A stretch of 64,000 nt of DNA, from assembly GCA_035654115.1 (NCBI GenBank), contig DASRXQ010000029.1:29187-93186 (forward strand), read 5' to 3'. The notes below the pieces were generated by a model. That model did no database searches, was not told the DNA's origin, and saw only the letters and a program-made list of their open reading frames with translations. The translations under genes and the position numbers were made by a program. How positions within the stretch are numbered: the first letter of the stretch is position 1; the number at the start of each line of letters is the position of its first letter. Below are positions 42,723 through 64,000 of this stretch, piece by piece. This DNA is from Saprospiraceae bacterium (GTDB lineage Bacteria > Bacteroidota > Bacteroidia > Chitinophagales > Saprospiraceae).

Positions 42723-44258
42723 ATGTCAGAAAAAAAAATTCCCCTTTTTGTACTCTTCTTTTTTATCCTGGTATGGGTAGCTTTTAAATGGAACTCTTTA
42801 TACCTGCCCTATTTTTGGGATGAAGCCTGGTCTTACGTCCCTGCAATTTCTGAAATGGCAGGACGCCGGCCATGTCTGATTCCCGGTTGCATCAATACTG
42901 AGTTATATCGTGGTCATCCATTGCTATTTTATTTCTTATCAGCGGGTTGGATGAAATGGATTGGTGGATCTCTCTGGTCGATGCACTTTTTTGCAATGCT
43001 CATATCCATAGCTGCTGTTATCTCATTTTACAGATTGTTATCATTGGTATTGACTTCTTACCAGGCACTATTTGGAGCAGGGCTACTGATTCTGCAGGAA
43101 GCATTTTATGTTCAGTCCTCTTTTGTTTTGCCGGAAGTATTTATCCTGCTGCTGACTTTAGAAAGTATAAGAAGCTATGTGAATGGCCAAAAATATTACT
43201 TCCTGATAGTTGCAGGTTTGCTAGGCGTCACAAAGGAAACCGGGGTGGTGGTTATCATATCATTTGCGCTCTATCATCTATTTACAGAACGAGGATTCAG
43301 GCTAAAGTCGTGTTGGGTCTATGGAGCGATGCTGCCTGCTGTCATTTATTTTGTTTTGCAAAAAATCATGCTTGGATGGTTTTTCTACCCTCTCCATCTG
43401 GATCTGATGGACATGTCATTACCTGCATTATGCAACAAAGCAGAATTAATATTAAAATTTATCTTCTTTGATCAGGGACGAAAATTAATATTGATCATCC
43501 CGGGGATTGTTCTGATTGCACTTCAATTCCTACGCAACAGAAGGAAATACCTATTAGCCTTCATTGCAGTTTTAGTTTTATCCATTTTCACATATATCCA
43601 TGAAAGTATATTTTCAATATTTATTTTCATTTTCTTAATCTATTATTATGCCAGGAGATTAGAGGGTTTTACCAGTTTGGAAAGATTGTTATTTAAGTTA
43701 ATTGGAATTCTGTTCACAAGCTGTTTTGCTTTTAGTGTTTTCAATTTTTTAATGGTGAGATATATGCTCATGGCACTACCCTTACTGATCCTGGTTTTCT
43801 CCATTATTATGCAAAAAGCAACACTTCATCCTCCGTTTTATTTTCCTGCTCTTTGCATTATTTTATTATTAAATTTTTCATGGTCATTTTATTATAATGA
43901 CAATATAAAGGAATGGCATGATGATGCCAGCATCAATTATATCCACATCGTGAAGGTCCATCAGCAGGTAGTCGCATACTGTGAGGAGGAGAAATGGTTT
44001 GAAAGGGAAATATATACCCATTTTCTATTACAGCAGGATTTAACAAACCTTGCTGCAGGATATCTTTCTTCACCCGTCACTTTTATTAAAGTTAACTACC
44101 AGGGGAATGTAGAACCTGAAGATGAGATCATTATTTTCTCCAGCATCGAATTTGAGGAATGGAAATATAAGTCCGTTAAGGACAACTCAAAATATCGTTT
44201 GGCAAAACGATTTGAAATAAATAAAGCGTGGGCAGAAATTTATACGTTGAATGAATAA
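42723..44258 (+). CDS. Polytopic membrane protein, GT-C/ArnT-PMT (GT39/83)-like putative glycosyltransferase
   Basis: 511 aa with about 12 TM helices, an early acidic loop (YFWDEAWSY), and a soluble C-terminal domain of about 120 aa. The family call is tentative. Confidence 0.5.
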   Translation: MSEKKIPLFVLFFFILVWVAFKWNSLYLPYFWDEAWSYVPAISEMAGRRPCLIPGCINTELYRGHPLLFYFLSAGWMKWIGGSLWSMHFFAMLISIAAVISFYRLLSLVLTSYQALFGAGLLILQEAFYVQSSFVLPEVFILLLTLESIRSYVNGQKYYFLIVAGLLGVTKETGVVVIISFALYHLFTERGFRLKSCWVYGAMLPAVIYFVLQKIMLGWFFYPLHLDLMDMSLPALCNKAELILKFIFFDQGRKLILIIPGIVLIALQFLRNRRKYLLAFIAVLVLSIFTYIHESIFSIFIFIFLIYYYARRLEGFTSLERLLFKLIGILFTSCFAFSVFNFLMVRYMLMALPLLILVFSIIMQKATLHPPFYFPALCIILLLNFSWSFYYNDNIKEWHDDASINYIHIVKVHQQVVAYCEEEKWFEREIYTHFLLQQDLTNLAAGYLSSPVTFIKVNYQGNVEPEDEIIIFSSIEFEEWKYKSVKDNSKYRLAKRFEINKAWAEIYTLNE

Positions 44259-44274: not shown

Positions 44275-47200
44275 TTATCTAACCAGTGTCACATCCCCAT
44301 TTACAATGATGTTGTGTTCCACCACTTTGTCAAAATAACTCATTTCAATTCGATACACATACACCCCGGGATTAAGTTCCTCACCATTAAAATCACCATG
44401 CCACTCGATGGGAATGGTTTCGGAGTGAAAAACTAAATTTCCCCACCGGTCATAAATACTGGCATCCATAGAATGCAATTCAATTTCATCATGGAGCTGT
44501 ATGGTGAATATATCATTGATGTTATCACCATTAGGTGAAAATACATTTGGAATGTAAAATGAATTTACAGCGTGACATGAATCGGATAGCATTGCTTCGG
44601 TTTCTCCTTGAGCATCAGCACAAAGAGTTTGAATAGAAACTGAATAGTTACCTGGTTGATCAATGACAAGTAAAGGAAGAGTCGATCCGGTGCTCCATAT
44701 ATAATTCGCCGGAAAAGGTTGCGTCACATTCAGTTCCACCTGATCATCGGGACATATGAAGGTAACAGGAGGTAATGAGACTTCCGGAATGCGGTCATCA
44801 TACGTGAGAACCAATTCATCATTCACTGCTCCGCATTCATTCGATAATTCAAGCGAATACGTCTGTGCCTGATCTGCAACCATCGAAGGGCTATTGCTTC
44901 CATCCTGCCATTTGAGGGTAGAAAAAGTTATTGGGGCATTTAGAAGAATAAATTCACCGGGACAAAGTATTGTATCCGGACCTAAATCAAATGCTAAAGG
45001 TGCATCGAGATAATCAATTGTTATCGTATCCGTATGATCTCCACAGTGATTGGTTTCCTGTATTGAATATGTACCCGGGAAGTTTACTAAAAATGTCGGC
45101 AATGACGTTCCATCCTGCCATTCAACGAGAGTTTCAATATCGGATGTTGAAGCAAGTATCATTGTCGTACCTGTACATAAAGTTGTATCAGGACCTAATT
45201 CTGTCGAAGGAAGTGTTCCATGAATATCCACATCAATGGTATCTCTATCCACCCCGCAATTATTGCTGACCTCAAGAATAAAAGTTCCTGATGCAGTTGT
45301 TGAAAAGGATGAACCCGTCGAACTATCCTGCCAATGAAAATCCACTCCGGAAATATCTGATGCCACTGTAACTACATCTCCCTCACAAGCCAATATATCC
45401 GGACCAAGATTGACATCAGGTCCATCGGTGCTGATCGTGATCTCAAGTGTGTCCGTATCCGTTCCACATGAATTCGTAACTATTAGAATGACCGTATCAG
45501 CCTCGGTTGCACTATATGTAGTAGCCATGGATCCATCCTGCCAGAGATAAGTTGCATTCTCTACTTCCGGATCAAGTGTAATGACTTCTCCCGGGCACAG
45601 AGATTGATCGTTTCCTAAATTAAGAACAGGAGCATCTGGTAAGATTCCGATATCGATTGTATCCGCATTTGATCCGCATGCATTTGAAATAGTTGCATAG
45701 TACTTACCCGGATCATCAATCTGGAATCCTGCATGGGTTGAACCATCAGACCATTCAATGTCGACATTCGGAGTGTTGATGGATAATATCAATGAGGCTC
45801 CGGGACAAAGTGAGGTATCATGGCCGAGATCAATCGGCGGAGTATCCGGCAGCAAAGCTGAAATCAGGGTGTCAAACGCACTGCCACAAACATTAGAAAC
45901 TTCCACGGTTACAATTTCATTACCGGTTAAGTTGTATGAAGCAAGATGTGATCCATCATTCCATAACCAATTGTCTACATCAGAAAATACAGGTAGTAGC
46001 GTAACAACATCACCAGAACAAAGTGAAACATCGATACCAAGAGCTACCGATGGCTTTGGACCAGCATCCAATATAATAACTGTATCAACATCAGTTCCAC
46101 AAGTATTGCTCACGGTCAGGCTGTATGATCCAAGAGAGAAAACTTCAAGTGAATCAACTTGCGAATTATCATTCCACAAATAGGAAACCCCACTGATACC
46201 TGCGTATAGCGTAAGACTTTCACCCTGGCAGAGATTTAATTGCTGAGGAAGATCAACTTGTGGAGGCTGATCATTTATCATAATCTCTATCGTATCAGCA
46301 GCCGATGTACATTGATCCGACACCTGTACATAATAAATACCCGCTGAATTGATCAGCAAGGTATCCGCAGTGCTCATATCCTGCCACAAATAAGCCACTC
46401 CTGAAATATTTGGTGTCAATATGATTTGTTCTCCAGGGCATAAAGCTACATCAGGACCAAGATCAGGCTGAGGAAGAGGTGATACGTAACTAATCTCAAT
46501 GTTATCACTGCCGGTTCCGCAAGCAGTGGTGACTGTCAATGTGTATGTACCTGGTGCATTCACAAGTAATGTATCTGCTGTTGAATTGTCCTGCCATAAA
46601 TAATTTCCACTATCACCCGTATTGGTAATTACAAAAGTCTGACCCTGACATAAAATCTGATCCGCAGGCAGGACGACATTAGTTACAGGATTTTGAATGG
46701 TCACTACAATCTCATCAGATACATCATAACATGAATTTGAAACGGTAACGCTATACGTTCCTCCCGATGTGACTTCGTATTGGTCACCGGCGGAGCCATC
46801 CTGCCATTGGAACGTGACCTGGGATAGTCCGCTCAGATCGAGTAAAACAGGTAGTTGTGCTGTACACACTTCAATGTCATCTCCTAAATCAAATACGGGT
46901 TCAATGCTTGCAAAAACTTCTATATTATCAGTGACGGATTCACATTGATTTGTGATCGTCAGAGAATAATATCCGGGTGTAGAAATAGTATAGAAAGCCT
47001 CATCACTTCCATCCTGCCATAGAAAATCGCCTAATGCAGGGTCAAGATCGATTTCATATGCATCCCCTTCACAAAGAAAATAATCATCAGGGCCAATATC
47101 GATCTGAAGAGCCTCAACATAGTCTACAATAATTTCATCTGTGAATAATCCACATATGCTGGATATAGTAAGTGCGTATGTACCGGGATCGTCGATAGTA

Positions 47201-48435
47201 AAATAAGAAAAATGAGATCCGTTCTGCCACGTAAAATCGCCTAATGCGGGATCGAAATCATAATCAATGTCATCACCGGGACAAAGCAACATGTCCTGAC
47301 CGAGAAAAAAAGGATCAGGAGAACTGACCACATTGACATTGACAAAATCACTCGTGGGGATACATCCATCATCCAGGGTCACCTCGTAAATTCCGGAAGT
47401 TGTGATTTCGTATTCAGTATCGTGAGAACCATCCTGCCAGGTATATGTCCCCAGTGACGGGTCAAGTGATACTGTATAATTATCTCCTTCACAAAGTTCA
47501 ACAAGAGGTTCTCCTATATCTATGGCTATAGGGGGTATGATAGTGACTTCCACTGAATCTATTCCAAATGCGCAACCATCGCTGATTGTTAAAGCATAGG
47601 TTCCGGACTCCGTGACAGTGAGTGTAGGATAAATGGATCCATCTTCCCAATGATAGTGAAAGGAGGTAGAGTAATTTGGATCGATTTCATATGACCCACA
47701 GGCAATGACAGGATCTCCCAGATCTATATCGATTATTCCTGGTGGGCCTAAAGCCATAACAGTTACATCATCCACATAGTAATAACTCTGAACAGGATTC
47801 TGGGCGCATGTAGGATCCAAAGGCGTATCCTCATCACTGAAGAAATTCCCAATAGTGATATATTCCTCACCTCCCACCGCAGGAAAACAGCCTGAAATCA
47901 GTGTCCAGTTTATTTTATCTGTCAATAAACCCAGGTTAGAAGAAACCTGGGGATCAACATTAATAGGTACGATGCCTGTATTAGGGGGAGGGATTGCAGA
48001 AAAATAAACGCCCATCTTGTCTGTTCCACAATTATTATCCGCCAGGCTCACATAAAAACTAATTTCATAGGCTGTATTAGGCATGAGAGGTTCTGTCAAT
48101 TGGACAGTCAGATATTCCCGATAAAGAAATCCGACAAACCACGTCCCTATACCGGCGTAAGCCACACCTGAATGTGGGCCCTGAGATCCAAAAAGATTAT
48201 TTGGGACATCCGCTCCCGGACCACCGCACACATTGAAATAATCAGAAGATGCATCGGTAGGATGATACCATGGAAGACATTCTAACGGCCCGCCCTGATT
48301 GACATTTGGAGGACAGACTGTGAAAGATTCAAAGTCGGGATTGGGTACGAGGTTTTGTGACCATGCATTTATGCCTGATAAAAGGAAAATCGATCCAATA
48401 ACAAACAGCTTAACGTGGTCTGATATCATTTTCAA
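44275..48435 (-). CDS. Giant T9SS type B cargo, adhesin-like, with 15 'W(Q/E/N)DGS' repeats
   Basis: It has a signal peptide and an N-terminal beta-sandwich-like domain (QNLVPNPDFE...CP...SDYFN). 15 tandem repeats of about 75 aa follow. The C-terminus is a gliding-motility/CHU_C-type domain (FYIPNVFSPNGDNINDIF...DRWGNLVF...GVYVYRI). Confidence 0.85.
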   Translation of the reverse strand: MKMISDHVKLFVIGSIFLLSGINAWSQNLVPNPDFESFTVCPPNVNQGGPLECLPWYHPTDASSDYFNVCGGPGADVPNNLFGSQGPHSGVAYAGIGTWFVGFLYREYLTVQLTEPLMPNTAYEISFYVSLADNNCGTDKMGVYFSAIPPPNTGIVPINVDPQVSSNLGLLTDKINWTLISGCFPAVGGEEYITIGNFFSDEDTPLDPTCAQNPVQSYYYVDDVTVMALGPPGIIDIDLGDPVIACGSYEIDPNYSTSFHYHWEDGSIYPTLTVTESGTYALTISDGCAFGIDSVEVTIIPPIAIDIGEPLVELCEGDNYTVSLDPSLGTYTWQDGSHDTEYEITTSGIYEVTLDDGCIPTSDFVNVNVVSSPDPFFLGQDMLLCPGDDIDYDFDPALGDFTWQNGSHFSYFTIDDPGTYALTISSICGLFTDEIIVDYVEALQIDIGPDDYFLCEGDAYEIDLDPALGDFLWQDGSDEAFYTISTPGYYSLTITNQCESVTDNIEVFASIEPVFDLGDDIEVCTAQLPVLLDLSGLSQVTFQWQDGSAGDQYEVTSGGTYSVTVSNSCYDVSDEIVVTIQNPVTNVVLPADQILCQGQTFVITNTGDSGNYLWQDNSTADTLLVNAPGTYTLTVTTACGTGSDNIEISYVSPLPQPDLGPDVALCPGEQIILTPNISGVAYLWQDMSTADTLLINSAGIYYVQVSDQCTSAADTIEIMINDQPPQVDLPQQLNLCQGESLTLYAGISGVSYLWNDNSQVDSLEVFSLGSYSLTVSNTCGTDVDTVIILDAGPKPSVALGIDVSLCSGDVVTLLPVFSDVDNWLWNDGSHLASYNLTGNEIVTVEVSNVCGSAFDTLISALLPDTPPIDLGHDTSLCPGASLILSINTPNVDIEWSDGSTHAGFQIDDPGKYYATISNACGSNADTIDIGILPDAPVLNLGNDQSLCPGEVITLDPEVENATYLWQDGSMATTYSATEADTVILIVTNSCGTDTDTLEITISTDGPDVNLGPDILACEGDVVTVASDISGVDFHWQDSSTGSSFSTTASGTFILEVSNNCGVDRDTIDVDIHGTLPSTELGPDTTLCTGTTMILASTSDIETLVEWQDGTSLPTFLVNFPGTYSIQETNHCGDHTDTITIDYLDAPLAFDLGPDTILCPGEFILLNAPITFSTLKWQDGSNSPSMVADQAQTYSLELSNECGAVNDELVLTYDDRIPEVSLPPVTFICPDDQVELNVTQPFPANYIWSTGSTLPLLVIDQPGNYSVSIQTLCADAQGETEAMLSDSCHAVNSFYIPNVFSPNGDNINDIFTIQLHDEIELHSMDASIYDRWGNLVFHSETIPIEWHGDFNGEELNPGVYVYRIEMSYFDKVVEHNIIVNGDVTLVR

Positions 48436-48475
48436 TTTTCATTTTTTATATGTGGCTCATAATAAGAGAAATGAA

Positions 48476-51400
48476 CTAGCGAATCAGGGTTACATCACCC
48501 TGCACCATGACATCCCGCTCCACGACTTTATCAAAATATGTCATTTGAATTCTATACACATACACGCCAGGGCTTAGTTTCTCTCCATTAAAATCACCAT
48601 GCCATTCGATAGGAATAGTTTCGGAATGAAAAACTAAATTTCCCCACCTGTCATAAATGCTGACCTCCATTGAATGCAGTTCAATTTCATCATGGAGCTT
48701 TATGGTGAAGATATCATTGATGTCATCCCCATTAGGCGAAAATATATTTGGTATGTAGAATGAATTTACAGCGTGACATGAATCAGATATCATGGCTTCA
48801 GTTTCTCCTTCTGCACCTCCGCACAAGGTTTGAATGGAAACTGAATAATTACCTGGATGATCAATGACGATTACAGGAAGAGTTGATCCGGTGCTCCATA
48901 TATAATTCGCCGGAAAAGGTTGTGTCACATTCAGCTCCACCTGATCATCGGGACATATAAATGTAACAGGAGGCAATGTAATTTCCGGAATGCGATCATC
49001 ATACGAGAGAATCAATTCATCGTTTACCAATCCACAATCATTCGATATTTCAAGTGAATAGGTTTGTGACTTATCTGCAATGAATGAAGGAATATTACTT
49101 CCATCCTGCCACCTGATCGTGGAAGAAGTGATTGGCGCATTAAGAATAATGAATTCACCGGGACATAGTATTGTATCCGAACCTAAATCAAATGCTGAAG
49201 GTGCATCGAGAAAATCAATGGTGATCGTATCAGCATGATCCCCGCAGTGATTTGATTCCAATAATGAATATGTACCGGCACTATTCACCAAAAGTGTTGG
49301 TGCTGACGTTCCATCCTGCCATTCAATAGTGGTTTCAACATCAAAATTCGAAATAAGTATTAATGATGATCCCGTACACAATGTTGTATCGGCACCTAAC
49401 TCAGTTGAAGGAGGTGTTCCATGAATATCTACATCGATCGTATCTTTATCAGCACCACAGGTATTGCTGACTTCAAGAATAAATGAACCGGAAACAGATG
49501 TTGAATAATCCGCAGTGGTAGATCCATCCTGCCAGAGATAATTTACTCCGGATACTCCGGCTGTCAATGTAACTACATCTCCCTCACAAGCCAGGATATC
49601 CGGACCAAGATTGACAATAGGCGCATCTGCACTAAACATGATTTCAATCGAATCAATATGGACACCGCAATGATTTGATTCAGATAAAATATACGTACCC
49701 GGAGATTCAACAAGAAACGTGGGAAGAGAAGACCCATCCTGCCAGACTAATATAGTTCCGGGATCAGATGTAGAAGAAAGTAACAAGCTGGATCCGTTAC
49801 ATAAGATCGTATCGGGGCCAAGATCAGTTTGCGGAATAGTGCCACTGATCACCACATCGACTGTATCCTTATCGACACCACAATTATTACTGACCTGCAG
49901 AATATATGTTCCTGATGCTGCTGTTGAAAAAGATGCGTTTGATGAACCATCCTGCCAGAGATATGAAACACCGCCGATATCCGATATCAGTGTAACTATA
50001 TCTCCTTCACAGGCCAGGATATCAGAACCCAGATTGACATCAGGTCCATCCGTGCTGATCGTGATTTCAAGTGTATCTGTATCCGCACCACATGCATTCA
50101 TCACTGTCAGTATAACTGTGTCTGCATCAGTTGCACTATAGGTTACTGCCGAAGATCCATCCTGCCACAGATAAGTTACATTTTGTATTCCCGGATCAAG
50201 TGTGATGACTTCACCGGGACAAAGCATCTGGTCTATCCCCAGGTGTAAGTCCGGTGCCGCAGGCAAATTTCCAACTTCGATTGTATCTGAATTAACTCCG
50301 CATAAGTTAGAAATAGTAGCAAAATATGAACCGGGAGTATTCGCAACATATTGTGGATTGACAGAACCATCGAACCATTGAATATTGACATTTGGTGTAG
50401 TGATGTTCAATATAAATGAGTTGCCCGGGCAGAGTGCTGTATCTGCTCCAAGATCAAGAGATGGAGTTTCAGGCAGAAGTGTTGCTATAAGTGTATCCAC
50501 CGCAAACCCACAAGTATTCGACACCTGAACACTGACGATTTCATTACCGGTTACTACATAAGCAGGCAAAGCAGATCCATCATTCCACAACCAATTATTT
50601 ACAGAAGAAAAAACAGGCATGATATGAATTGTATCTCCGGCACAAAGTGATACATCACTACCCAAATTAATAGAAGGTGAAGGGCCGCCATCCAAAACAA
50701 TAACAGTATCAGCATCTGTTCCGCAAGCATTGGAGATCGTCAGGCTATATGTTCCGGCAGTTGTCACATTGAGAGAATCCGCCTGAGACTGATCATTCCA
50801 TAAATATGAAACTCCACCAATACCTGCTTCAATGGTGAGACTTAGACCCTGACATAAGCTCAATGTAGAATCAAGTGATAATTGTGGGGGTTGATTATTT
50901 ACAAAAACCTCTATCGTGTCAGATGAAAATGTACATTGATCTGAGATCTGCACATAATAGGTCCCGGGCGTATTCACTACAAAATGATTTGACGTACTCA
51001 TATCCTGCCATAAATATTGTACTCCCGGAATATTCGGTGCCAGGTTGATTTGTTCGCCAGGACATAAAAACAAATCAGGACCCAGATTTGGAACAGGCAC
51101 GGGCGGTTTGTAATTGATGACGACAGCATCACTTCCTGATCCACATATAGTCGATACAGTCAGTGTGTATGTTCCGGGTGAATCAACAAATAAAGAATCT
51201 TCAGTGGAATTATCCTGCCACAAATAATTACCAACATCACCTGAATTTGTAATTACAAAACTTTCGCCTTCACACAAAAACTGATCGACAGGTAATATGA
51301 CATTTGGAACCGTATTGTCTACAGTCACAACGATCTCATCAACGACCGTAAAACATGCATTGGAAACTGTAACATTGTAAGTGCCTTCACCTGTCACGAG

Positions 51401-53047
51401 GAATTGATTAAATGCAGACCCGTCCTGCCACATATACTGAGCCTGTGGAATAATACCAAGGTTAAGCAAAATGGGAAACTGCGGGTCACAAACTGTAGTA
51501 TCATTACCCAGGTCGATTACGGGTGCAACCGTTGGAAAAACATTAATGGTACTACTTTCTATAAAACATCCATTGTCCACAATGACAGAATAGAATCCGG
51601 GTGTTGAAATCGTATAAAAATTATCCGTACTTCCATCCTGCCATAGGAAATCACCCAGATCAGGATCAAGTACAATATCATGCTCTTCGCCCTGACAGAG
51701 ATAAAAATCGGGACCGAGATCTACCTGGAAAGGTTGTGGATAAGTTACATCTATGCTGTCTGTAAACACACCACATATATTGGTTATGGTGAGTGCATAC
51801 AATCCTTCATGCATGATCGTGTATGAGGAAACACCAAATCCATTTTGCCAATGAAAAGTCGTGAAAGCAGGATCGAAACTATAATGGATGGTTTGGCCAG
51901 GACATAAAATGGTATCTGATCCCAGAAAATTTGGAGGTGGAGCAGCAACCGTATTGACAACGACAAAATCAGTTGTCGGAAAACATCCATCATCCAGGGT
52001 TACCTGGTAAGTTCCGGATGTGGTGATGGGATAACTGGTAACGTGTGAGCCATTCTGCCATGTGTACGTTCCAAGCGTAGGATCAAGTGAAATCAAATAT
52101 GTGTCGCCTTCACACATCAGGTGAGAGGATGGTCCGATTTCAACGGTTTCACCCGGAATGATATTCACTTCCAATGAATCTATTCCAAAAGCGCAGCCAT
52201 CGCTGATCGTTACTGCATAGATACCGGATTCGGTGACAGTAAGGGTTGGATAAATAGACCCGTCTTCCCAATGATAATGAAAGCTTGTAGAATAATTAGG
52301 ATCAATCGTATAGGATCCACATGAGCTGACAGGGCCTCCCAGCTCAATACTCAGGTCTCCTGGTATACCCATGGCATAAAGTGATACATCATCCACATAA
52401 TAAGCGCTTGCAATTGGAAAACCGGTACAAGGATCAATGGGTGTATCGGCATCACTAAAGAAATTTCCGATGGTCAGATATTGTTCGCCTCCTTCGGCTA
52501 CAATACAACCGCTGATTAAAGTCCAGTTTGTGTTGTCAGTGATGATCCCGAGGTTGGAAGAAAACTGTGGGTCAACATTTATAGGCAGCATGCCTGTATT
52601 AGGAGGAGGTGCTGCAGAAAAGTAAGCCCCTATCTTATCTGTTCCGCACCAATCATCTTCAAGGCTTACATAAAAACTGATTTCATAGGCTATACCGGGT
52701 AGCAAAGGTTGAGTTAATTGAACACACAGGTATTCCCTCGAAACAAAACCGACAAACCACATACCTATGCCTGTGTAGCCGACTCCGGAGTGAGCAAACT
52801 GATTACCAAAGGCATTTATAGGTACTCCTGCATTTGGTCCGGCACATGCATTGAAATAATCAGAAGATCCATCTGTGGGGTGGAACCAATTCGTGCATTC
52901 CATTGGTCCGCCCTGATTGACATTGGTAGGACATAAGGTAAATGTTTCAAAATCGGGATTAGGGACGAGATTTTGAGACATTCCACTGGCACTAGCTAAG
53001 ATGAGACAGTAACTAATAATAAATAGTCTGAAATAGCTGGATATCAT
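48476..53047 (-). CDS. Giant T9SS type B cargo, adhesin-like, with 17 'W(Q/E/N)DGS' repeats (tandem paralog)
   Basis: The architecture is the same as 44275-48435. I start it at ATG 53047 (MISSYFRLFIISYCLILASASGMSQ) rather than at the ORF-track start 53197. It contains an extra duplicated two-repeat unit. Confidence 0.85.
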   Translation of the reverse strand: MISSYFRLFIISYCLILASASGMSQNLVPNPDFETFTLCPTNVNQGGPMECTNWFHPTDGSSDYFNACAGPNAGVPINAFGNQFAHSGVGYTGIGMWFVGFVSREYLCVQLTQPLLPGIAYEISFYVSLEDDWCGTDKIGAYFSAAPPPNTGMLPINVDPQFSSNLGIITDNTNWTLISGCIVAEGGEQYLTIGNFFSDADTPIDPCTGFPIASAYYVDDVSLYAMGIPGDLSIELGGPVSSCGSYTIDPNYSTSFHYHWEDGSIYPTLTVTESGIYAVTISDGCAFGIDSLEVNIIPGETVEIGPSSHLMCEGDTYLISLDPTLGTYTWQNGSHVTSYPITTSGTYQVTLDDGCFPTTDFVVVNTVAAPPPNFLGSDTILCPGQTIHYSFDPAFTTFHWQNGFGVSSYTIMHEGLYALTITNICGVFTDSIDVTYPQPFQVDLGPDFYLCQGEEHDIVLDPDLGDFLWQDGSTDNFYTISTPGFYSVIVDNGCFIESSTINVFPTVAPVIDLGNDTTVCDPQFPILLNLGIIPQAQYMWQDGSAFNQFLVTGEGTYNVTVSNACFTVVDEIVVTVDNTVPNVILPVDQFLCEGESFVITNSGDVGNYLWQDNSTEDSLFVDSPGTYTLTVSTICGSGSDAVVINYKPPVPVPNLGPDLFLCPGEQINLAPNIPGVQYLWQDMSTSNHFVVNTPGTYYVQISDQCTFSSDTIEVFVNNQPPQLSLDSTLSLCQGLSLTIEAGIGGVSYLWNDQSQADSLNVTTAGTYSLTISNACGTDADTVIVLDGGPSPSINLGSDVSLCAGDTIHIMPVFSSVNNWLWNDGSALPAYVVTGNEIVSVQVSNTCGFAVDTLIATLLPETPSLDLGADTALCPGNSFILNITTPNVNIQWFDGSVNPQYVANTPGSYFATISNLCGVNSDTIEVGNLPAAPDLHLGIDQMLCPGEVITLDPGIQNVTYLWQDGSSAVTYSATDADTVILTVMNACGADTDTLEITISTDGPDVNLGSDILACEGDIVTLISDIGGVSYLWQDGSSNASFSTAASGTYILQVSNNCGVDKDTVDVVISGTIPQTDLGPDTILCNGSSLLLSSTSDPGTILVWQDGSSLPTFLVESPGTYILSESNHCGVHIDSIEIMFSADAPIVNLGPDILACEGDVVTLTAGVSGVNYLWQDGSTTADYSTSVSGSFILEVSNTCGADKDTIDVDIHGTPPSTELGADTTLCTGSSLILISNFDVETTIEWQDGTSAPTLLVNSAGTYSLLESNHCGDHADTITIDFLDAPSAFDLGSDTILCPGEFIILNAPITSSTIRWQDGSNIPSFIADKSQTYSLEISNDCGLVNDELILSYDDRIPEITLPPVTFICPDDQVELNVTQPFPANYIWSTGSTLPVIVIDHPGNYSVSIQTLCGGAEGETEAMISDSCHAVNSFYIPNIFSPNGDDINDIFTIKLHDEIELHSMEVSIYDRWGNLVFHSETIPIEWHGDFNGEKLSPGVYVYRIQMTYFDKVVERDVMVQGDVTLIR

Positions 53048-53228
53048 GTACAGTTCTCGTTTTTCATCCACAAAAGTTCTTAGGAGGATTGAAAGTACAA
53101 AGTATCCCCGAAATCCTGAGTAAGGCTGCCTTTGAACCTTAAACCTTGTGTGCCAACAAGCCGGGAATAAAAGGAATAGATCCATGACAAGCCGCATTCC
53201 ATAGAATTTTAGTCTCTTTGAGGCAATT

Positions 53229-56200
53229 ATGATCCGAATGCCCTACCACATTACTTCACGATTGATCCGAATATACTTCATATCTGGCTTGTGCTTATCT
53301 GCATTTTTTACATCAGGTCAGAATCTGGTTCCAAATCCTGACTTTGAAACTTACACAACATGTCCATCAAATATTGGCACAGGGGGTTTCTTTCAGGCAG
53401 TGCCATGGGATAATGGGAATCTTGGTACAAGTGATTATTTTAATGCCTGTGATTTAACCAATACTGTTGGTGTACCTGCAAATGTTTTCGGTAACCAGCC
53501 GGCCCATTCCGGGAATGGATATGCCGGCTTATATGTTCGCAGTCAGACTTTGATCTATTATGAATACATCCAGGCCCCGCTTTTGGAAAGCCTGGTCAGT
53601 GGTGAAACGTACCACGTAAGTTTTTATGTCAGTCTAAGCGATGGACTCTGTGGCACCGGACATATAGGAGCATATTTTTCTTTTCTTCCTCCTCCTACAA
53701 TTAGCAGTAATCGTTTAGACGTAGTACCGCAAATCGATTATGCCATGAATGGTTATTTATCCAGCCATGATGACTGGATGTTTGTATCCGGATGTTTTAC
53801 AGCCCAGGGTGGCGAATCTTACATAACGATTGGAAATTTTCATATTGCGGCAGATACTCCTGTAGACCCGGGTTGTCCGCTTTCAGCGAATGAATCTTAT
53901 TATTATATCGATGACGTTGTCGTTGAAGAAGGACCTGACCCGGGTATTATTCCACTTGATCTTGGGGGTCCGATTACGATCTGCAATGCATACCTGGTTG
54001 ATCCTGGTATAGATAGTGTTTCATATCATTGGGAAGATGGCACTACAGCTGATACACTGAACATCACTACATCGGGAAATTATGCATTAACCATTTCCGA
54101 TGGATGTAATATTGGAATAGACAGTATTGATGTTACTATTGAAGGAAATCCTCAGTCAGTAGAAATCGGGACCGATTCAATAACGATTTGCAATGGAGAT
54201 CATTTTGATATTTCACTTGACCCCAATTGGAATTATGTGTGGAGTGATGGAACTACATCTCCGGATATTTCTCTTTCCTCCTCTGGTAATTATTCCGTTA
54301 CGCTTGACGATGGATGTGACATCTCCGCAGATACGATTTACCTCAATGTGCTATCTCCTCCGGCCCCATTCTCCCTGGGTATTGACACGGCTATTTGTCA
54401 GGGCTCAATCATATCTTATAATTTCGATCCTTCATTAGGAGAATTTATTTGGCAGGATGGCATTATTGGCGCAGAATATGAAATCAGTGATCCGGGCACC
54501 TACGCTCTGACGATTTCAAATATTTGTGGGAGTGCAACTGATGACATTGTGATTTCTGATCTTCCTGTTCCGGATGTTGAACTGGGTAGTCAAATTTTTT
54601 CACTGTGTACAGGCAGTACTCTTCTTATCAATCTGGATACACTTATTGCAAATTTTATCTGGCAGGACGGTTCTCTTAATTCATCCTACCTGGTTACGTC
54701 TGAAGGAACTTATGCGGTTACAGTTTCAAATGCATGCGGATCTGATAGTGATACAATTGTTGTGCATGAAGTATTATTTCCCTCAGTGGACCTGGGAACT
54801 GATATTACAATTTGTTTTGCGCAGCTTCCATACCAACTGGATATCTCAGGCTTGATGAGCGCAACGGGTTTTATCTGGCAGGATGGAAGCACAAATCCTG
54901 TATACAATATCTTGTCTTCAGGTGATTACAGCGTTACGGCTTCAAATGTTTGTTTTTCTGATGTTGATACCCTACAAGTTGAGGTAACTAATGAGGTACC
55001 ACAAGTTATATTACCCGCCGATCAATCTCTTTGTATTGGTGATACGCTTGTGCTGACTAATGCGGGTTCGTCAGGTACATATGAATGGAGTGATCAATCC
55101 TCCAACACATCATACATGGTCACAGAAGCAGGAACTTATTCCCTTACTGTCACAAATATTTGTGGTGCAGGAGCGGATACGATAAAAATTGATGCGGTTT
55201 CATCACCTTCCATTCCGGATTTAGGTCCTGATGTTTCCTTGTGCATTGGCCAAACTATTCTCCTGGTCCCGATGATATCAGATGTTTCTTTCGTATGGCA
55301 GGATGGAAGTACTGCCGATACATTATTAGTAAATTCTTCCGGTATCTATTCCGTACAGGCAGACAATATATGTGGATCATCTAAAGATACAATTGTCATC
55401 TCGGAGACTACAGATGCACCTGATGTTGATCTTGGTCCGGATGTGAGAGGCTGCATAGGAGATGTCGTGACACTTGTATCCAATATTTCAGGTGTTGATT
55501 TTGAATGGCAGGACGGATCTCAATTACCCGGATACACCACACCTGTTTCAGGACAGTTTATTCTGCATGTGAGCAATGGTTGTGGTTTTGATACGGATAC
55601 CATAGAAGTGGATATTCATGGCTCTGCTCCACAAGCTGATCTGGGTAACGATACATCATTGTGCACCGGAAATATTTTACAGCTGTCCATAACATCTGAT
55701 TCCGAAACACAGATTCAATGGCAGGATGGTTCTGTATTTTCAAATTTTACGGTGTCAGTACCAGGAACATATTCTGTTTTTGCATCCAATTATTGTGGGT
55801 CTGCTTCGGATACAATTGATGTTGGATTTTTAAACCCTCCTTCAGCATTTAATCTCGGTGCGGATACTATACTTTGTCCAGGGGAAAGTTTATTACTTCA
55901 GGCTCCTTTCACGAATGATGAGATTCAATGGCAGGACGGAAGCATGGATGACACATACCTGGCTGATCAATCACAAACCTATTCGCTGCTGCTATCCAAT
56001 CCGTGTGGAAGTGAGTCTGATGAATTAAATCTGATCATTGATGAGAATGTTCCGGTTATTCAACTGGATACACAGATAAGGATTTGCCAGGGTGATTTAA
56101 TTACACTCAATGTGACTCAATTGTTCCCGGCTGTTTATGAGTGGAATACAGGATCGACGGAACCCGTTTTTCAAATTATGGATCCGGGACAGTATTCAGT

Positions 56201-56564
56201 TTCGGTTAAAACACTTTGCGCAGAAACACATGCGGAAACAAATGTCGTTCTTTCCGATACTTGTTATGCTGAGAATTCATTCTATGTTCCCAATGTTTTT
56301 TCTCCGAATGACGACAACATTAATGATGACTTTGCTATAAAATGGGATCCGGAAATTGAAGTACATTCTATTTACACCAGCATATTTGACAGATGGGGAA
56401 ATATGGTTTTTAGTTCAAACGAAATTCCTGCAATATGGAATGGTGAATACAAAGGAAATATACTAAGCCCTGCTGTGTTTGTCTATCGGATAGAAATTGC
56501 GTATTTTGATAAATTGGCAGAAAGGACGTTGATTTTGCACGGAGATGTGACGCTGATCCGATAG
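53229..56564 (+). CDS. Giant T9SS type B cargo, adhesin-like, with 11 'W(Q/E/S)DG(S/T)' repeats (divergent paralog)
   Basis: It has the same N-terminal domain (QNLVPNPDFETYTTCPSN...), 11 repeats, and the type B CTD (FYVPNVFSPNDDNINDDF...DRWGNMVF...AVFVYRI). Confidence 0.85.
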   Translation: MIRMPYHITSRLIRIYFISGLCLSAFFTSGQNLVPNPDFETYTTCPSNIGTGGFFQAVPWDNGNLGTSDYFNACDLTNTVGVPANVFGNQPAHSGNGYAGLYVRSQTLIYYEYIQAPLLESLVSGETYHVSFYVSLSDGLCGTGHIGAYFSFLPPPTISSNRLDVVPQIDYAMNGYLSSHDDWMFVSGCFTAQGGESYITIGNFHIAADTPVDPGCPLSANESYYYIDDVVVEEGPDPGIIPLDLGGPITICNAYLVDPGIDSVSYHWEDGTTADTLNITTSGNYALTISDGCNIGIDSIDVTIEGNPQSVEIGTDSITICNGDHFDISLDPNWNYVWSDGTTSPDISLSSSGNYSVTLDDGCDISADTIYLNVLSPPAPFSLGIDTAICQGSIISYNFDPSLGEFIWQDGIIGAEYEISDPGTYALTISNICGSATDDIVISDLPVPDVELGSQIFSLCTGSTLLINLDTLIANFIWQDGSLNSSYLVTSEGTYAVTVSNACGSDSDTIVVHEVLFPSVDLGTDITICFAQLPYQLDISGLMSATGFIWQDGSTNPVYNILSSGDYSVTASNVCFSDVDTLQVEVTNEVPQVILPADQSLCIGDTLVLTNAGSSGTYEWSDQSSNTSYMVTEAGTYSLTVTNICGAGADTIKIDAVSSPSIPDLGPDVSLCIGQTILLVPMISDVSFVWQDGSTADTLLVNSSGIYSVQADNICGSSKDTIVISETTDAPDVDLGPDVRGCIGDVVTLVSNISGVDFEWQDGSQLPGYTTPVSGQFILHVSNGCGFDTDTIEVDIHGSAPQADLGNDTSLCTGNILQLSITSDSETQIQWQDGSVFSNFTVSVPGTYSVFASNYCGSASDTIDVGFLNPPSAFNLGADTILCPGESLLLQAPFTNDEIQWQDGSMDDTYLADQSQTYSLLLSNPCGSESDELNLIIDENVPVIQLDTQIRICQGDLITLNVTQLFPAVYEWNTGSTEPVFQIMDPGQYSVSVKTLCAETHAETNVVLSDTCYAENSFYVPNVFSPNDDNINDDFAIKWDPEIEVHSIYTSIFDRWGNMVFSSNEIPAIWNGEYKGNILSPAVFVYRIEIAYFDKLAERTLILHGDVTLIR

Positions 56565-56701: not shown

Positions 56702-59700
56702 CTATCTCCTCACTACTTTATTAATCAATTGAGTTCCGTTGACCTCTGTCATGACAAAATAAATTCCAGCGTTCCATGAGGTTGTATTTATTGTAATGGT
56801 TTTTGATGATACAGTTTGTTGCAAAATTATTTTTCCAAATACATCTGCTACACTAACCGTTCCTGTATTTCCTTCTTCAATCCTTACCGTTAATATCTGA
56901 TCTACGGGATTTGGATATATAGACACGACTTCAGAAGATTGTACAGGATGCACACCCACCGGAATACAATCCGGATCATAAGGCCCACCGGGTGAACCAC
57001 CCAGACAACCTGCAAACCAATTGAACGGATCATTCAGATTTACATACGCATCACCAAGTTCAAGCGTATATCCATTTCCATCTGCTTCGGTGATCCAGGG
57101 AGCAATATCATCAAAACAAATACTCAGCTGCAATCTTCCACTTGCATCATAAAGACGAATTACATCTCCACCATTACCTAACCCAAAACCTAAATCTCCG
57201 AGCTTTTGAAAAACGGTAGGATGCACTTCAATAAAATCTGCTTCGTTTTCACACAGCACCAGGTATCCGCCGGCAGATATAATCCTTCCTGCCGGTATTG
57301 TAAAAATATGTGCATCATCATCGTCACGTACAGACCAACCAGAAAGGTCAACAGGAATATCAAGTTGATTTTTGATCTCAAACCAATCACCCGCATCCTC
57401 ATCATTTGAAGAATGATAATTGATTTCGCTCACGATCAGATCATCTGCACATGGCGAAAAAGAAGTTCCCGGGCTTCCACCCATGCAACCATCAAACCAG
57501 CTCTGAGGTTGGCCGGGATCATTTATACCTGGGTATCGTTCAAGTGTACGTCCAAATCCATCAGGCGTACATGGCCAGGGAAGTTCGTCAGCATATGCAG
57601 CCTGCATAACTGTGGTTCCTGACCGATCGATTACAAAAATTTCTTCTCCGTCATTATCCAGTCCGAATAGCGTGCTCCCTGCTTTATTAGATACTTCAGG
57701 ATGTATCACACTGAATTTCTCTTCATCCTTCACTACTACAATTCGCTCTCCAGGCTGAAGAATGGAACCTGCAGGCATAGAGAAAGCATTGAACCAATCC
57801 TTATCCTGCATTTTATAATCCGTCAGATCAATAGCGAAGTCAGCTGCATTTTTTATTTCAAACCAATCTCCATCATCCCTGGTATCATCCGGGTGATAAT
57901 TGACTTCTGTCAATTCCAGCAATGCGGGTTGCGATGTTCCGCTGAAATGAGCAGTAAATTCCGAGAATGGCTGAATGTTGATCGTAAATGAACCCGCAAG
58001 TGTATCAAGCGATAAATTATTTTCCCAGTGGTCAAATGAATAACCCGGGTTCGGAATAGCTGTAATGGTCACGGGTACATCATCAAAATAAATTCCAGCC
58101 CAGGGATATTCTTTCGGAATGACAGTACTGATCTTGATAACACCGGCTTCAGCCGGTTCTACGCGAAGAGCGATATCAACCTGCTCACCTAATTCAAAAT
58201 ATTCCTGTAACTGCTGTCGCTGAAAGACACGCCGGATATTATGGAACTCCTGGAGATCATAAACATTATTCAGCCAGCTAAGCGAGTCCGGGGATCCCCA
58301 ACGTGCGCTTTGACGGTTTATTTCCGAAGCGATTTCAGCTGCATTATTTTCGATTATAGCCAGTGCTTTCTCAGGTGTCCAGTATTCGTTCATCAAATCT
58401 GCAAACCGGTTGATGAAATATAGTTTGAATTCAGGATTTTGCAACAGGCTGTTCATCATATCTGTGTACAGGTTTTGTTGAGCGGGATGTGCAAGTGCTT
58501 CATCCAGGATATTGGTTGTCACTGAAACACCATTCCCCTGGGCATACGTCACATCAAAAATGATATATCTCCAGCGCAGATCTGGCGCTCTGTACATCCG
58601 TGTATTATTGAAATACATGCTCGAAAACCAATCCCCGTTAGCGAGATACATCTCTGCAGCAAAATAATCAACCCAGTTTTCCCAATCGACACGTTTCTTA
58701 GCCTCTGCAAAATTGTCCGGGTCATTCATATCATGCTGAATGAGAAAATCACTCATGGAAAAAAAATCATCACCTGTACCTTCGTCTACGAGATAATGTT
58801 CATCTTCAAAATAGGAGGATAGTATCTGATCGACCAGTTCCGGATCAGCACCATGGTTGTCACGGACATAATATTCATTCGTAACTTCCCTTCCGCCATA
58901 ATGTCCCCAATATTCTCCATTGATGAAGACCGCCATATGCTGATATCCTGTAGAAGCACAATGTGTAGGCAGCGTAAGTTGATTAGCCAATATGTCACGC
59001 ATTCGCGTGCTGTTCCAGTCATCATCCATATTCCGTACACGGAATTCACGATAGCTGGTGATGCCCGGTTTGTCTCTTAAGAAAATGGGATAATGCACTT
59101 CATCCAGAGCACCAAAATCTTCATCAAAAGAAAACTGCATTGACTTCTGGTCAAAAGCAATTGAATATCCGCCTACAGGACGCATGCTTGCATTTTCTGA
59201 AAAAGCAAGATTCTTGTATTTATCAAAATATTCAAGATGAACAGGCGCTTTGATTCCCTGACCATAATTATCATATGCAGCGAGACCACCACTTCCGTCA
59301 TTAAACAAATCACCTGGTGTTGCAGAAATACTTAGTACCGGCAGATCGCTTTTTTCTCCAATAAAATAAGTAGCACAAGCAGTCTGTCCGGCTAATCTTC
59401 CGGTTTCAAAGCTTCTCGCTTTTACTACCGTTGTACTGTTGATTGTAAACGGACCGGTATAAATTTCAGATTCATTTGTCGGTTCACTCCCATCCGTAGT
59501 ATACCGTACATCATTTCCTTCTATGATAACAGTCTGATCGGTCTGATAAAAACCTGCATCCGGAGAAATGACCGGTTTTTCTGAATACCCCGATAGACAA
59601 TTATTACCATTCGGTGCTGCTGCTGTAGAGCTGTCCGTAAGACACCAATCTCCTGTATCATCCATTCGCATGATAGAATTGCCGGGCAACAAATAAGGCA

Positions 59701-60679
59701 TCTCAATGCTATCAGTAACTACACCGACTGCATCAAACAACCTCACTGTCTCTCCGAAACCGATTTTAAAATTGGTATGATACAATGAGGTTATGATGTC
59801 ATTGAAAAAAGAAGGATTAGGACCGTAGAAAACATCAGGCGTATGAATGCCAAAATGCAGCCACGTTCTTCCGGAGAGATCGCTTGAAGCGGGTTCAATA
59901 TTGTGAACTTCAATAGCAAGCACATTTTGACCCGTGATGAGCAGTGATGCAAGTTCGGATTTTGAAATCGGGAACACATCCGGGCTTCCGCCGGTGTATA
60001 GTTGCGCCTCATGGTCAACAGTTGCCACAGTGGTATAATCAGGTGTGCCGTCCGGCATATTTGAACTGCGGAAAATTTCAATACCGTTGAGGTACGCTAT
60101 GAATGCATCGTCATAATCCATGCTTAGGATGGCGCTATCAAGTTTGGCCGGGTCTGCAACATTGAACCTGTGCCGGTAATAAAATGCAAGTGTAGAATCC
60201 GGTATGGTGGTCACATCATCGTCATCTCCGTATCCAAAACCACCTTGTGCATTATCCCATGCACTATCATCAAAGGTCAGCGATGTCCAATCAGCAGGAG
60301 GGTTTTCGGTTCCAATAAATAATCGCCAGAGATCTCCTTCATTCAGTGCGGTTTCCCAGTGGTCGATAGCAGATTGGCCCAGGCCTCCCCTGTTTTTGCC
60401 AGAGGCAAAGATGAGAATACGCTCGCCGGCTGGCAGGCTATGATCAGGAAAGGTCCATTTCGGATTTTTACTATCGCTGAGGCTGAAGCCGATGAGATTT
60501 TGATCCGTCGGGCCGGCATTGTAGACCTCTATCCAGTCCGGATATTCGTTGTTCTCATCTGCCAGCAGGTAAGCATTGGTCGGGGATACTTCGGATATAA
60601 CCAATTGGGCCTTAGCCTGGAATGGAATCAGGAATAAAATGGCTGAGATATAGAAAATGGTTTTCATGATGTGGATCAT
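56702..60679 (-). CDS. CotH-family protein with three lamin-tail domains, a chitobiase/hexosaminidase-C-like domain and a T9SS type A CTD
   Basis: The lamin-tail domains are LVISEVSPTN...DWIEVYN, LTEVNYHPDD...DWFEIKN and VSEINYHSSN...DWFEIKN. Other segments are RYTTDGSEPT...YTGPF and a CotH core (FRVRNMDDDWNSTRMRD...YQHMAVFINGEYWGHY). The C-terminus is IYPNPVDQILTV...GIYFV. The likely start is MKTIFY at 60667. Confidence 0.8.
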   Translation of the reverse strand: MIHIMKTIFYISAILFLIPFQAKAQLVISEVSPTNAYLLADENNEYPDWIEVYNAGPTDQNLIGFSLSDSKNPKWTFPDHSLPAGERILIFASGKNRGGLGQSAIDHWETALNEGDLWRLFIGTENPPADWTSLTFDDSAWDNAQGGFGYGDDDDVTTIPDSTLAFYYRHRFNVADPAKLDSAILSMDYDDAFIAYLNGIEIFRSSNMPDGTPDYTTVATVDHEAQLYTGGSPDVFPISKSELASLLITGQNVLAIEVHNIEPASSDLSGRTWLHFGIHTPDVFYGPNPSFFNDIITSLYHTNFKIGFGETVRLFDAVGVVTDSIEMPYLLPGNSIMRMDDTGDWCLTDSSTAAAPNGNNCLSGYSEKPVISPDAGFYQTDQTVIIEGNDVRYTTDGSEPTNESEIYTGPFTINSTTVVKARSFETGRLAGQTACATYFIGEKSDLPVLSISATPGDLFNDGSGGLAAYDNYGQGIKAPVHLEYFDKYKNLAFSENASMRPVGGYSIAFDQKSMQFSFDEDFGALDEVHYPIFLRDKPGITSYREFRVRNMDDDWNSTRMRDILANQLTLPTHCASTGYQHMAVFINGEYWGHYGGREVTNEYYVRDNHGADPELVDQILSSYFEDEHYLVDEGTGDDFFSMSDFLIQHDMNDPDNFAEAKKRVDWENWVDYFAAEMYLANGDWFSSMYFNNTRMYRAPDLRWRYIIFDVTYAQGNGVSVTTNILDEALAHPAQQNLYTDMMNSLLQNPEFKLYFINRFADLMNEYWTPEKALAIIENNAAEIASEINRQSARWGSPDSLSWLNNVYDLQEFHNIRRVFQRQQLQEYFELGEQVDIALRVEPAEAGVIKISTVIPKEYPWAGIYFDDVPVTITAIPNPGYSFDHWENNLSLDTLAGSFTINIQPFSEFTAHFSGTSQPALLELTEVNYHPDDTRDDGDWFEIKNAADFAIDLTDYKMQDKDWFNAFSMPAGSILQPGERIVVVKDEEKFSVIHPEVSNKAGSTLFGLDNDGEEIFVIDRSGTTVMQAAYADELPWPCTPDGFGRTLERYPGINDPGQPQSWFDGCMGGSPGTSFSPCADDLIVSEINYHSSNDEDAGDWFEIKNQLDIPVDLSGWSVRDDDDAHIFTIPAGRIISAGGYLVLCENEADFIEVHPTVFQKLGDLGFGLGNGGDVIRLYDASGRLQLSICFDDIAPWITEADGNGYTLELGDAYVNLNDPFNWFAGCLGGSPGGPYDPDCIPVGVHPVQSSEVVSIYPNPVDQILTVRIEEGNTGTVSVADVFGKIILQQTVSSKTITINTTSWNAGIYFVMTEVNGTQLINKVVRR

Positions 60680-63331: not shown

Positions 63332-64000
63332 TCAATCCACTATAATTTTCCTCACCACTCTCCCTTTTTTCACCTCAACCACCAACTCATACATACCCGG
63401 CGGAATTTCAAGCAGAAGTGTTACATTTCCATTCCCGGCAACAGGTGTTAATACTTCGTGTCCCTGCAGATCAAATAATCGTAATGTCGCTGGTTCGTGA
63501 TGATTCCATACTACATTCATAACGCCCACTACCGGATTTAGTGTGAAACGAACATCCAGTTCTTCCTCAAGTGTTGATTGCACAGAGACGTTAAGACATG
63601 TCAGACCAAAAACTGTATCCTGAAAAAATGTGATCGTATCCACTATTGAACCACCAGGACAATCAATGGTGTATTCTACCTGTCCTTTAAAACTTCTCAC
63701 CAGCGCAGTTCCATTGGCATTCGTAGTAGCTGCAGTATCCGTCCACCATTGGTGATAAACGAGATCAATAAACGCCTGCCCTGATGGTTTGAGACTCCAG
63801 TCCTGACGAAACAGCGGTGCATTGTTAAACCAATGTGCTCCATCCCAAAATCCCCACATCAGGATCGCATCCACGCTGGGATGACTAAACGACATCGTAT
63901 AAAAATCACGCAGATATTTCGCAGCGAGATCTTCATTGATCAATGGATGCATATCAAATTCAGTGATCTTTGCTCTGATGCCAAACGTTGTGTAATAATC
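63332..64000 (-). CDS. Glycoside hydrolase family 10 (xylanase-like), C-terminal part, with a T9SS type A CTD (5' end outside the window)
   Basis: The frame stays open to base 64000, giving ...GIRAKITEFDM (the GH10 nucleophile motif ITELD-like). It continues with ILMWGFWDGAHW and a C-terminal Por-secretion-tail-like segment (LRLFDLQGHEV...GMYELVV). Confidence 0.7.
   Translation of the reverse strand, partial: DYYTTFGIRAKITEFDMHPLINEDLAAKYLRDFYTMSFSHPSVDAILMWGFWDGAHWFNNAPLFRQDWSLKPSGQAFIDLVYHQWWTDTAATTNANGTALVRSFKGQVEYTIDCPGGSIVDTITFFQDTVFGLTCLNVSVQSTLEEELDVRFTLNPVVGVMNVVWNHHEPATLRLFDLQGHEVLTPVAGNGNVTLLLEIPPGMYELVVEVKKGRVVRKIIVD

Follow-up and report, generated by a model that had tools for sequence, protein, structure and literature searches.

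Three putative stalked adhesins of a Saprospiraceae bacterium with predicted carbohydrate-binding-module-like heads, immunoglobulin-like stalks and type B secretion signals

[quoted passage not shown] We analysed a window of 64,000 nucleotides from a 5.7-Mb Saprospiraceae metagenome-assembled genome (MAG) of 31 contigs, in which the region 44275-56564 is filled by three long open reading frames (ORFs), here termed A, B and C, all of which translate without stops. Our favoured reading, which we hold to be probable though well short of certain, is that A, B and C are stalked, lectin-like surface adhesins, an ordinary kind of Bacteroidota adhesin belonging to a large unnamed family. All three share a signal peptide, an N-terminal domain, a run of tandem repeats and a type B T9SS C-terminal domain (CTD), which is the four-part architecture described in the original prediction; the trio takes up 12,290 of the 64,000 bases (19%), in line with the roughly 12 kb given there.

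Gene A lies on the reverse strand at 44275-48435 (1386-residue ORF) and carries 15 repeats, gene B, also on the reverse strand, at 48476-53197 (1573-residue ORF) carries 17, and gene C on the forward strand at 53229-56564 (1111 residues) carries 11; the counts, obtained by anchoring on a W-x-D-G-S motif, are those first reported. A aligns with B from B residue 49, and together with a reading of the junction DNA this places the real start of A probably at the ATG at 48429, giving 1384 residues, and that of B probably at Met51, at 53047 rather than 53197, giving 1523 residues. On their common strand B sits upstream of A at a distance of 46 nt, and B and C are divergent; assuming the B start at 53047, the two are separated by an intergenic spacer of about 180 bp (53048-53228), which presumably holds divergent promoters.

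Each protein carries, as judged by eye, an N-terminal Sec signal peptide, with a basic n-region, a hydrophobic core and small residues ahead of the conserved mature end QNLVPNP. The CTDs of A (residues 1290-1386; 44275-44568, reverse strand), B (48476-48769, reverse strand) and C (56271-56564, forward strand), each interval including the stop codon, match two type B profiles above their curated cut-offs: TIGR04131 scores 50.8, 53.3 and 43.1 bits for A, B and C, respectively (cut-off 35), and PF13585 (CHU_C) 64, 66.8 and 52.3 (cut-off 27), which upholds the type B assignment made earlier. The gene for the translocon, sprA, is on the same contig (C29:375-7700, a 2509-residue ORF, 2255 bits), about 21 kb ahead of where the window begins.

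Published work shows type B substrates to depend on PorP/SprF-like shuttles. No cognate porP/sprF-like gene lies directly downstream of A, B or C, whose neighbouring genes are unrelated, and the PorP/SprF profile (PF11751) has no match anywhere on contig C29; since no such gene is nearby, the three count as ‘orphan’ type B cargos as PMC12618676 uses the term. A search of the genome with PF11751 returned nine PorP/SprF genes above the family cut-off and one weak match, and a comparison of coordinates places two of them only, at C20:271664 and C13:208874, directly downstream of a type B cargo, whereas TIGR04131 has 52 matches in the genome, 50 of them above cut-off. In Flavobacterium johnsoniae, 9 of the 12 type B substrates adjoin an SprF-like gene, and the orphan ones (Fjoh_1123, Fjoh_1720, Fjoh_4934) use the orphan shuttle Fjoh_1677 (PMC12618676). 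The trio is like these orphans in having a type B CTD, no adjoining porP/sprF-like gene and a predicted adhesin role, and most PorP/SprF genes of its genome, like the orphan shuttle, are not beside a type B cargo gene. The passenger domains, however, are unrelated, and the scale is different: many type B cargos are present here for few PorP/SprF genes, in contrast to the mostly paired arrangement in F. johnsoniae, which raises the question of how at least 50 type B cargos are secreted with nine shuttles above cut-off.

The N-terminal domain, or head, comprises residues 27-235 of A (47731-48357, reverse strand), with six cysteines, residues 75-282 of the long B ORF (52352-52975, reverse strand) and residues 31-240 of C (53319-53948, forward strand). 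It is Cys-rich and begins QNLVPNPDFE in all three proteins, as had been noted, and it measures about 210 residues rather than the 230 then estimated. No Pfam or NCBIfam model covers it, the matches to CBM_4_9, HpiC1-like and DUF642 models being sub-threshold (13.5-20.5 bits for CBM_4_9, PF02018, against a cut-off of 25.9), and comparison with PDB sequences gave nothing meaningful (best E 0.7, to aminopeptidase N). AlphaFold2 (AF2) modelling of the C head with an alignment of 37 sequences produced an all-β structure (pLDDT 92, pTM 0.90), for which Foldseek returned the carbohydrate-binding modules (CBMs) CBM4-2 (1k42), CelK CBM4 (3p6b), CBM16 (2zey) and CBM61 (2xom) with E-values of 6e-6 to 1e-4, together with a hyaluronan-binding module, the gingipain K1-K3 adhesin domains, the HpiC1/Stig cyclases and an endo-arabinanase CBM (E about 4e-6 to 1e-4 overall, TMq 0.45-0.58). 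As modelled, the head is a CBM4/CBM16-like β-jelly roll. It shares this fold with CBM4, CBM16, CBM61 and the gingipain K1-K3 ‘cleaved adhesin’ domains at a Foldseek probability of 1.00, has the N-terminal N-x-x-F-E strand of CBM_4_9-type domains and is, like the gingipain adhesin domains, a T9SS passenger; unlike these domains, to which it is 11-16% identical, it has five or six conserved cysteines. Identity between the heads of C and either A or B is 47%.

The head is widespread in Bacteroidota. With a profile built from the three head sequences, matching cluster representatives (50% identity level) numbered 12,204 at E<=1e-3 and 9,187 at E<=1e-10, in proteins ranging from about 240 to 3,800 residues, sometimes with two to four tandem head copies. 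Among the library representatives, P0125-P0158 and P0258 (1,300-3,800 residues) have two to four tandem heads, a multi-headed plan that is not found in the window. Reference genomes with the head come from Saprospiraceae, Flavobacteriales, Chitinophagales, rumen Bacteroidales and Cyclobacteriaceae, and include Arenibacter troitsensis. Beyond Saprospiraceae the usual form is a protein of 320-400 residues in which the head is joined directly to a T9SS tail or, as read by eye, to an OmpA-like domain; in A. troitsensis DSM 19835 and a rumen Bacteroidales MAG, also by eye, the head is followed by a domain resembling OmpA-type peptidoglycan-binding domains (…NRRVEF…) in place of the T9SS tail. Because the head mostly sits directly on the T9SS tail outside Saprospiraceae, the stalk repeats look like an inserted spacer, and the long stalk seems to be what Saprospiraceae have added to a common short protein. 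Within the genus, the head is present in 23 of 24 sampled genomes, with 1-27 matches each. The genome studied here has at least eight long-stalk paralogues, three on C29 and the others on contigs C2, C23, C20, C8 and C21. Several contigs start or end inside family members (C2:22-1035, C21:22-1035, C8:4-3390 and C22:2511-3113), so the assembly probably breaks or collapses there and the true number of paralogues may exceed eight.

The stalk extends over residues 236-1289 of A (44569-47730, reverse strand; 15 units of 70 residues), 283-1476 of B (48770-52351, reverse strand; 17 units) and 241-1014 of C (53949-56270, forward strand; 11 units). Units are spaced 69-72 residues apart, mostly 70, against a first estimate of about 75. 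In an alignment of all 43 units, Cys11, Trp28 and Cys53 are invariant and Asp58 is near-invariant, and the consensus, VDLGPDTSLCEGDTITLNLDISSVNYLWQDGSTAPSYTVTSSGTYSVTVSNACGSASDTIEVTISDAPPA, agrees with the pattern described in the original prediction. That no named family fits the repeat cleanly is borne out by the single units, 0 of 43 reaching the gathering score of any Pfam family: Ig_7 (PF19081) matches four units weakly (best 17.8 bits, E 0.0043; gathering score 27.3), PKD (PF00801) matches three (best E 0.0044; gathering score 23.5 bits) and the SprB repeat (PF13573) one (E 0.066). Some homologues do carry precomputed PF19081 matches. The repeat consensus, however, scores 25.1 bits against PKD (E 1.8e-5, model positions 9-79 of 80), above the 23.5-bit cut-off, so that of the earlier statement that the repeat is neither classic PKD nor SprB-type, the SprB half stands and the PKD half goes too far. 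W-Q-D-G-S resembles a shortened form of the PKD ‘WDFGDGS’ loop. Alignment with titin I-set domains places their F-G hairpin against the second half of the unit (G-T-Y-S-V-T-V-S-N-x-C-G-...-V).

Searching all PDB sequences with the 43-unit profile gave one strong target, with E 3.9e-28 accumulated from dozens of individually weak domain matches: the grappling-hook protein GhpA of Aureispira sp. CCB-QB1 (PDB 9flp and others), a solved precedent for a head, an immunoglobulin (Ig) stem and a T9SS tail in one protein (bioRxiv 10.1101/2024.01.29.577165). Units 6-8 of C (55005-55634, forward strand) were modelled by AF2 with an alignment of 37 window-derived triplets; the model has six strands per unit and a pLDDT of 94.3, and its pTM of 0.64 fits beads on a string, that is, domains on flexible joints. 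Among PDB structures, Foldseek ranks neck, stem and base fragments of GhpA highest (E 3e-13 to 6e-12, about 20% identity) and the Ig arrays of contactin, titin and Robo next, so that the earlier suggestion to look for an Ig-like fold with a disulfide is upheld as regards the fold. From the profile scores, the AF2 model and the Foldseek matches, the repeat unit is predicted to be an Ig-like E-set domain, a divergent relative of PKD and Ig_7. It is like these two families in its E-set β-sandwich of 70-85 residues, its W-x-x-G-D-G-S-like loop and its G-T-Y-x-V-T-V hairpin, and Ig_7 (‘Ig-like domain CHU_C associated’) occurs, according to its Pfam description, with CHU_C tails as the trio repeats do. 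It is unlike them in that its loop is two residues shorter and in its invariant Cys pair at positions 11 and 53.

The AF2 model places Cys11 where the first strand ends and Cys53 in the turn that links the last two strands. In Ig domains the F-G loop shares one pole with the start of strand A, and an intradomain Cys11-Cys53 disulfide, one per unit, is therefore likely, given also the invariance of both cysteines. An extra cysteine after the last unit prompted the idea of a shifted disulfide, from Cys53 of one unit to Cys11 of the next; this arrangement was rejected on Ig topology, as it would be expected to span the whole domain. A, B and C contain 14, 22 and 16 copies of the Bacteroidota O-glycosylation sequon D-(S/T)-(A/I/L/V/M/T), compared with 9.4, 9.3 and 7.3 in shuffled sequences; the sequon is found at unit position 58 in 27 of the 43 units and nowhere in the head or CTD. 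The Ig domains of GhpA are glycosylated (bioRxiv 10.1101/2024.01.29.577165), and with this precedent the enrichment is suggestive of O-glycosylation. Asp58 may just as well have a structural role or bind Ca2+, and the named GhpA glycan site, Thr-3075, is not aligned to unit position 58 in our reading of the profile alignment.

Taken as stalked adhesins, the three proteins would work as follows. The Sec signal peptide would take each across the inner membrane, and the type B CTD would route it through SprA across the outer membrane, where, by analogy with F. johnsoniae, it would most likely be kept on the cell by a shared ‘orphan’ PorP/SprF-like shuttle whose gene lies in another part of the genome. 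With their short Pro-rich linkers, the 11-17 Ig-like (PKD/Ig_7-like) units would form a semi-rigid stalk, roughly 40-70 nm long at about 4 nm per Ig domain, in which one disulfide, from Cys11 at the start of strand A to Cys53 at the tip of the F-G hairpin, probably staples each unit. The distal CBM-like head of about 210 residues, to judge from its fold, may bind a glycan or other polymer on particles or neighbouring cells, and, as head sequences and stalk lengths differ between paralogues, these probably differ in ligand and reach.

Several points weigh against this reading. The fold similarity of the head is moderate (TM about 0.5-0.6) and extends to non-lectin proteins such as the Stig cyclases, so that carbohydrate binding is not established, and the fusions of the head to OmpA-type domains hint that in some lineages the ligand may be periplasmic or part of the envelope. 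Surface anchorage is argued by analogy, with no cognate PorP/SprF gene adjacent, and the source is an uncultured MAG.

The most interesting alternative, to which we give a minor but not negligible chance, is that the proteins form miniature grappling-hook-like appendages, in which protomers packed in register, as in the GhpA heptamer, make a rigid bundle whose heads catch prey, filaments or host cells during predation or epibiosis. GhpA itself has 5,898 residues, with 52 Ig repeats of about 83 residues and a hook module of about 1,400 residues; it assembles into heptamers, and downstream of its gene lie ghpB/C, which code for PorP/PorE homologues (bioRxiv 10.1101/2024.01.29.577165). The trio is like GhpA in its order of Sec signal, N-terminal binding module, long run of Cys-containing Ig-like repeats and T9SS C-terminal sorting domain, and the GhpA repeats, from the same broad, family-level lineage, are its nearest solved relatives in both sequence and structure. 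Saprospiraceae include ixotrophic and epiphytic forms, and across 123 relatives the 15 unit positions each remain recognisable by a sequence of their own, a constraint such as packing in register would impose. Old duplications without homogenisation could give the same position-specific identity, however, and there are differences: the proteins, at 1,100-1,520 residues and with 70-residue units, are four to five times shorter than GhpA, their 210-residue CBM-like head is unrelated in sequence to any GhpA part (a search of the complete GhpA chain with the head profile gives no match at E<=10), and no PorP or PorE genes of the ghpB/ghpC kind adjoin them downstream. Were the bundle real, the trio family would be a short, widespread Saprospiraceae class of grappling-hook-like devices, with a ring of hitherto unmodelled CBM-like heads catching filaments, prey or floc polymers, and the GhpA-type architecture would be a general adhesion device, tunable over 10-17 units, and not a one-off.

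We consider it improbable that A, B and C are mobile gliding-motility adhesins of the SprB/RemA type, moved along the surface by the gliding machinery. Their type B CTD is shared with SprB, relatives are publicly annotated as ‘gliding motility-associated C-terminal domain-containing protein’, and the authors of the GhpA study themselves compare GhpA with SprB. Yet the SprB repeat model accounts for a single weak unit match, no sprF-like gene is adjacent and all three proteins are far smaller than SprB; at least eight paralogues in one genome, and up to 27 head matches in a relative, are a better fit to varied adhesion than to core motility.

A similarly low probability attaches to the proteins being released rather than anchored, with the head acting as a soluble binding or catalytic module, for example to capture polymers or with an activity like that of Stig cyclases. 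Release does occur among T9SS cargos, in some cases, and the Foldseek matches to HpiC1/Stig cyclases and to an endo-arabinanase CBM point in this direction; against it, there is no evident reason for a soluble protein to carry a stalk of 11-17 domains, and Pfam and NCBIfam scans matched no catalytic family.

The repeats are old, and each is tied to its position. Apart from the internal duplication in B, pairs of units within one protein average about 27% identity and reach 24-44% at best, whereas same-numbered units of A and B are 50-89% identical. Units 1-7 of C correspond to units 1-7 of A and units 8-11 of C to units 12-15 of A, and B has an extra copy of units 12-13. This copy is a two-unit tandem duplication at 49193-50038 (reverse strand), in which units 12-13 and 14-15 are 66% and 56% identical in amino acid sequence. 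In 123 family proteins every unit was paired with the A unit that it matches best, and each protein was written as a string (123456789abcdef for A itself, 123456789abcdcdef for B); units of these relatives are 45-58% identical to their cognate unit and about 27% to other units. The string starts with ‘12’ in 121 of the 123 proteins and ends with ‘ef’ in 119. Fourteen units is the commonest number (60 proteins), the commonest form lacking unit 5 (29 proteins), followed by 15 units (34 proteins, 20 of them exactly 123456789abcdef), 16 units (10 proteins, with local tandem duplications), 17 units (nine proteins, with duplications such as cdcd, 8989, 2323 and 444), 10 units (six proteins) and 11 units (three C-type proteins without units 8-b); a 663-residue partial record has six.

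Orthologous loci, whose repeat counts the original prediction had proposed to survey, keep both unit count and order at 60-73% identity. The C orthologue in GCA_016722045.1 (73% identity) has 11 units in the same order at a syntenic site beside the S1 gene, and the B orthologue in another genome (P0020, about 60% identity), also beside S1, has 17 units including the same cdcd duplication, which must therefore be ancient. Invariant copy number and a clean match to a characterised Pfam adhesin domain had together been put forward as grounds for setting the repeat finding aside; copy number is indeed stable between orthologues, and no clean assignment to a characterised Pfam family emerged. Exact direct repeats within a gene reach 15-17 nt at most, and DNA identity between units is 63-79%. 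Given these short repeats, the low DNA identity and the constancy of the orthologues, unit number appears to change by rare gain or loss of whole units over long times and not by ongoing slippage. The 11-mer TGGCAGGATGG does recur, as first noticed, with 17 exact copies and 23 in the genes at <=1 mismatch (1.4 expected), so that ‘dozens’ was generous; it represents simply the codons for W-Q-D-G. RecA-type recombination needs roughly 25 bp or more of identity, of which 15-17 nt falls short, and the proposal that the 11-mer offers many registers for unequal recombination finds no support in these values or in the position-specific units of the 123 relatives; a recombination hot spot was rejected on the low DNA identity of the units and their conserved order. 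A contingency locus, with fast unit-number change by unequal recombination producing length or antigenic variation within a population, might be read from the recurring 11-mer, the spread of 10 to 17 units among family members and the two-unit duplication in B, but the shortness of the exact repeats, the age of that duplication and the unchanged 11 units of the C orthologue make it very improbable.

The trio family is real and well defined, of an established kind, and its value lies mainly in annotation and in providing a small relative of GhpA. The trio can serve as a clear reference for the architecture of one of the largest unnamed T9SS cargo families, and it exposes two gaps in the domain libraries, the CBM-like head (about 9,200 clusters, Bacteroidota) and the Cys-framed PKD/Ig_7-like stalk unit. 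Practical uses would include better annotation and candidate adhesins for floc formation or epibiosis, and the proteins are a tractable small system in which to study GhpA-like stems.

A and B are 69% identical in amino acid and 71% in nucleotide sequence, with synonymous differences throughout the pairwise alignment, and a recent duplication was rejected on these values. They are most alike over the last 230 residues or so (units 14-15 and the CTD; 44275-44990 compared with 48476-49190), where the DNA is 80-93% identical and one stretch of 35 codons holds three synonymous differences only, as against about 55-75% DNA identity elsewhere. Published work reports the need for an extended type B secretion signal, and the similar ends may reflect either strong constraint on such a signal or local gene conversion, both of which fit equally well.

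Gene content at the locus varies, with three genes here and one each in two relatives, and no conserved partner gene was found: the neighbours of the paralogous loci on C23, C20 and C2 have only other T9SS cargos in common. Convergent with A and ending 16 nt from it is a gene for a PMT_2-family (ArnT/PMT-like) membrane glycosyltransferase (42723-44258, forward strand), which two relatives lack at their syntenic loci, and we therefore claim no functional link between it and the adhesins. On the other side of the trio, 56702-60679 (reverse strand) encodes a secreted protein of 1325 residues that combines three lamin-tail domains and a CotH kinase-like core with a chitobiase C-terminal Ig domain and, as its T9SS tail, one of type A; this lamin-tail/CotH-like gene is also found near the syntenic locus in GCA_016722045.1. 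Further along, a 206-residue ORF (63332-63952, reverse strand) has a weak match to a type A T9SS tail (19.9 bits, below cut-off) and is a possible further cargo.

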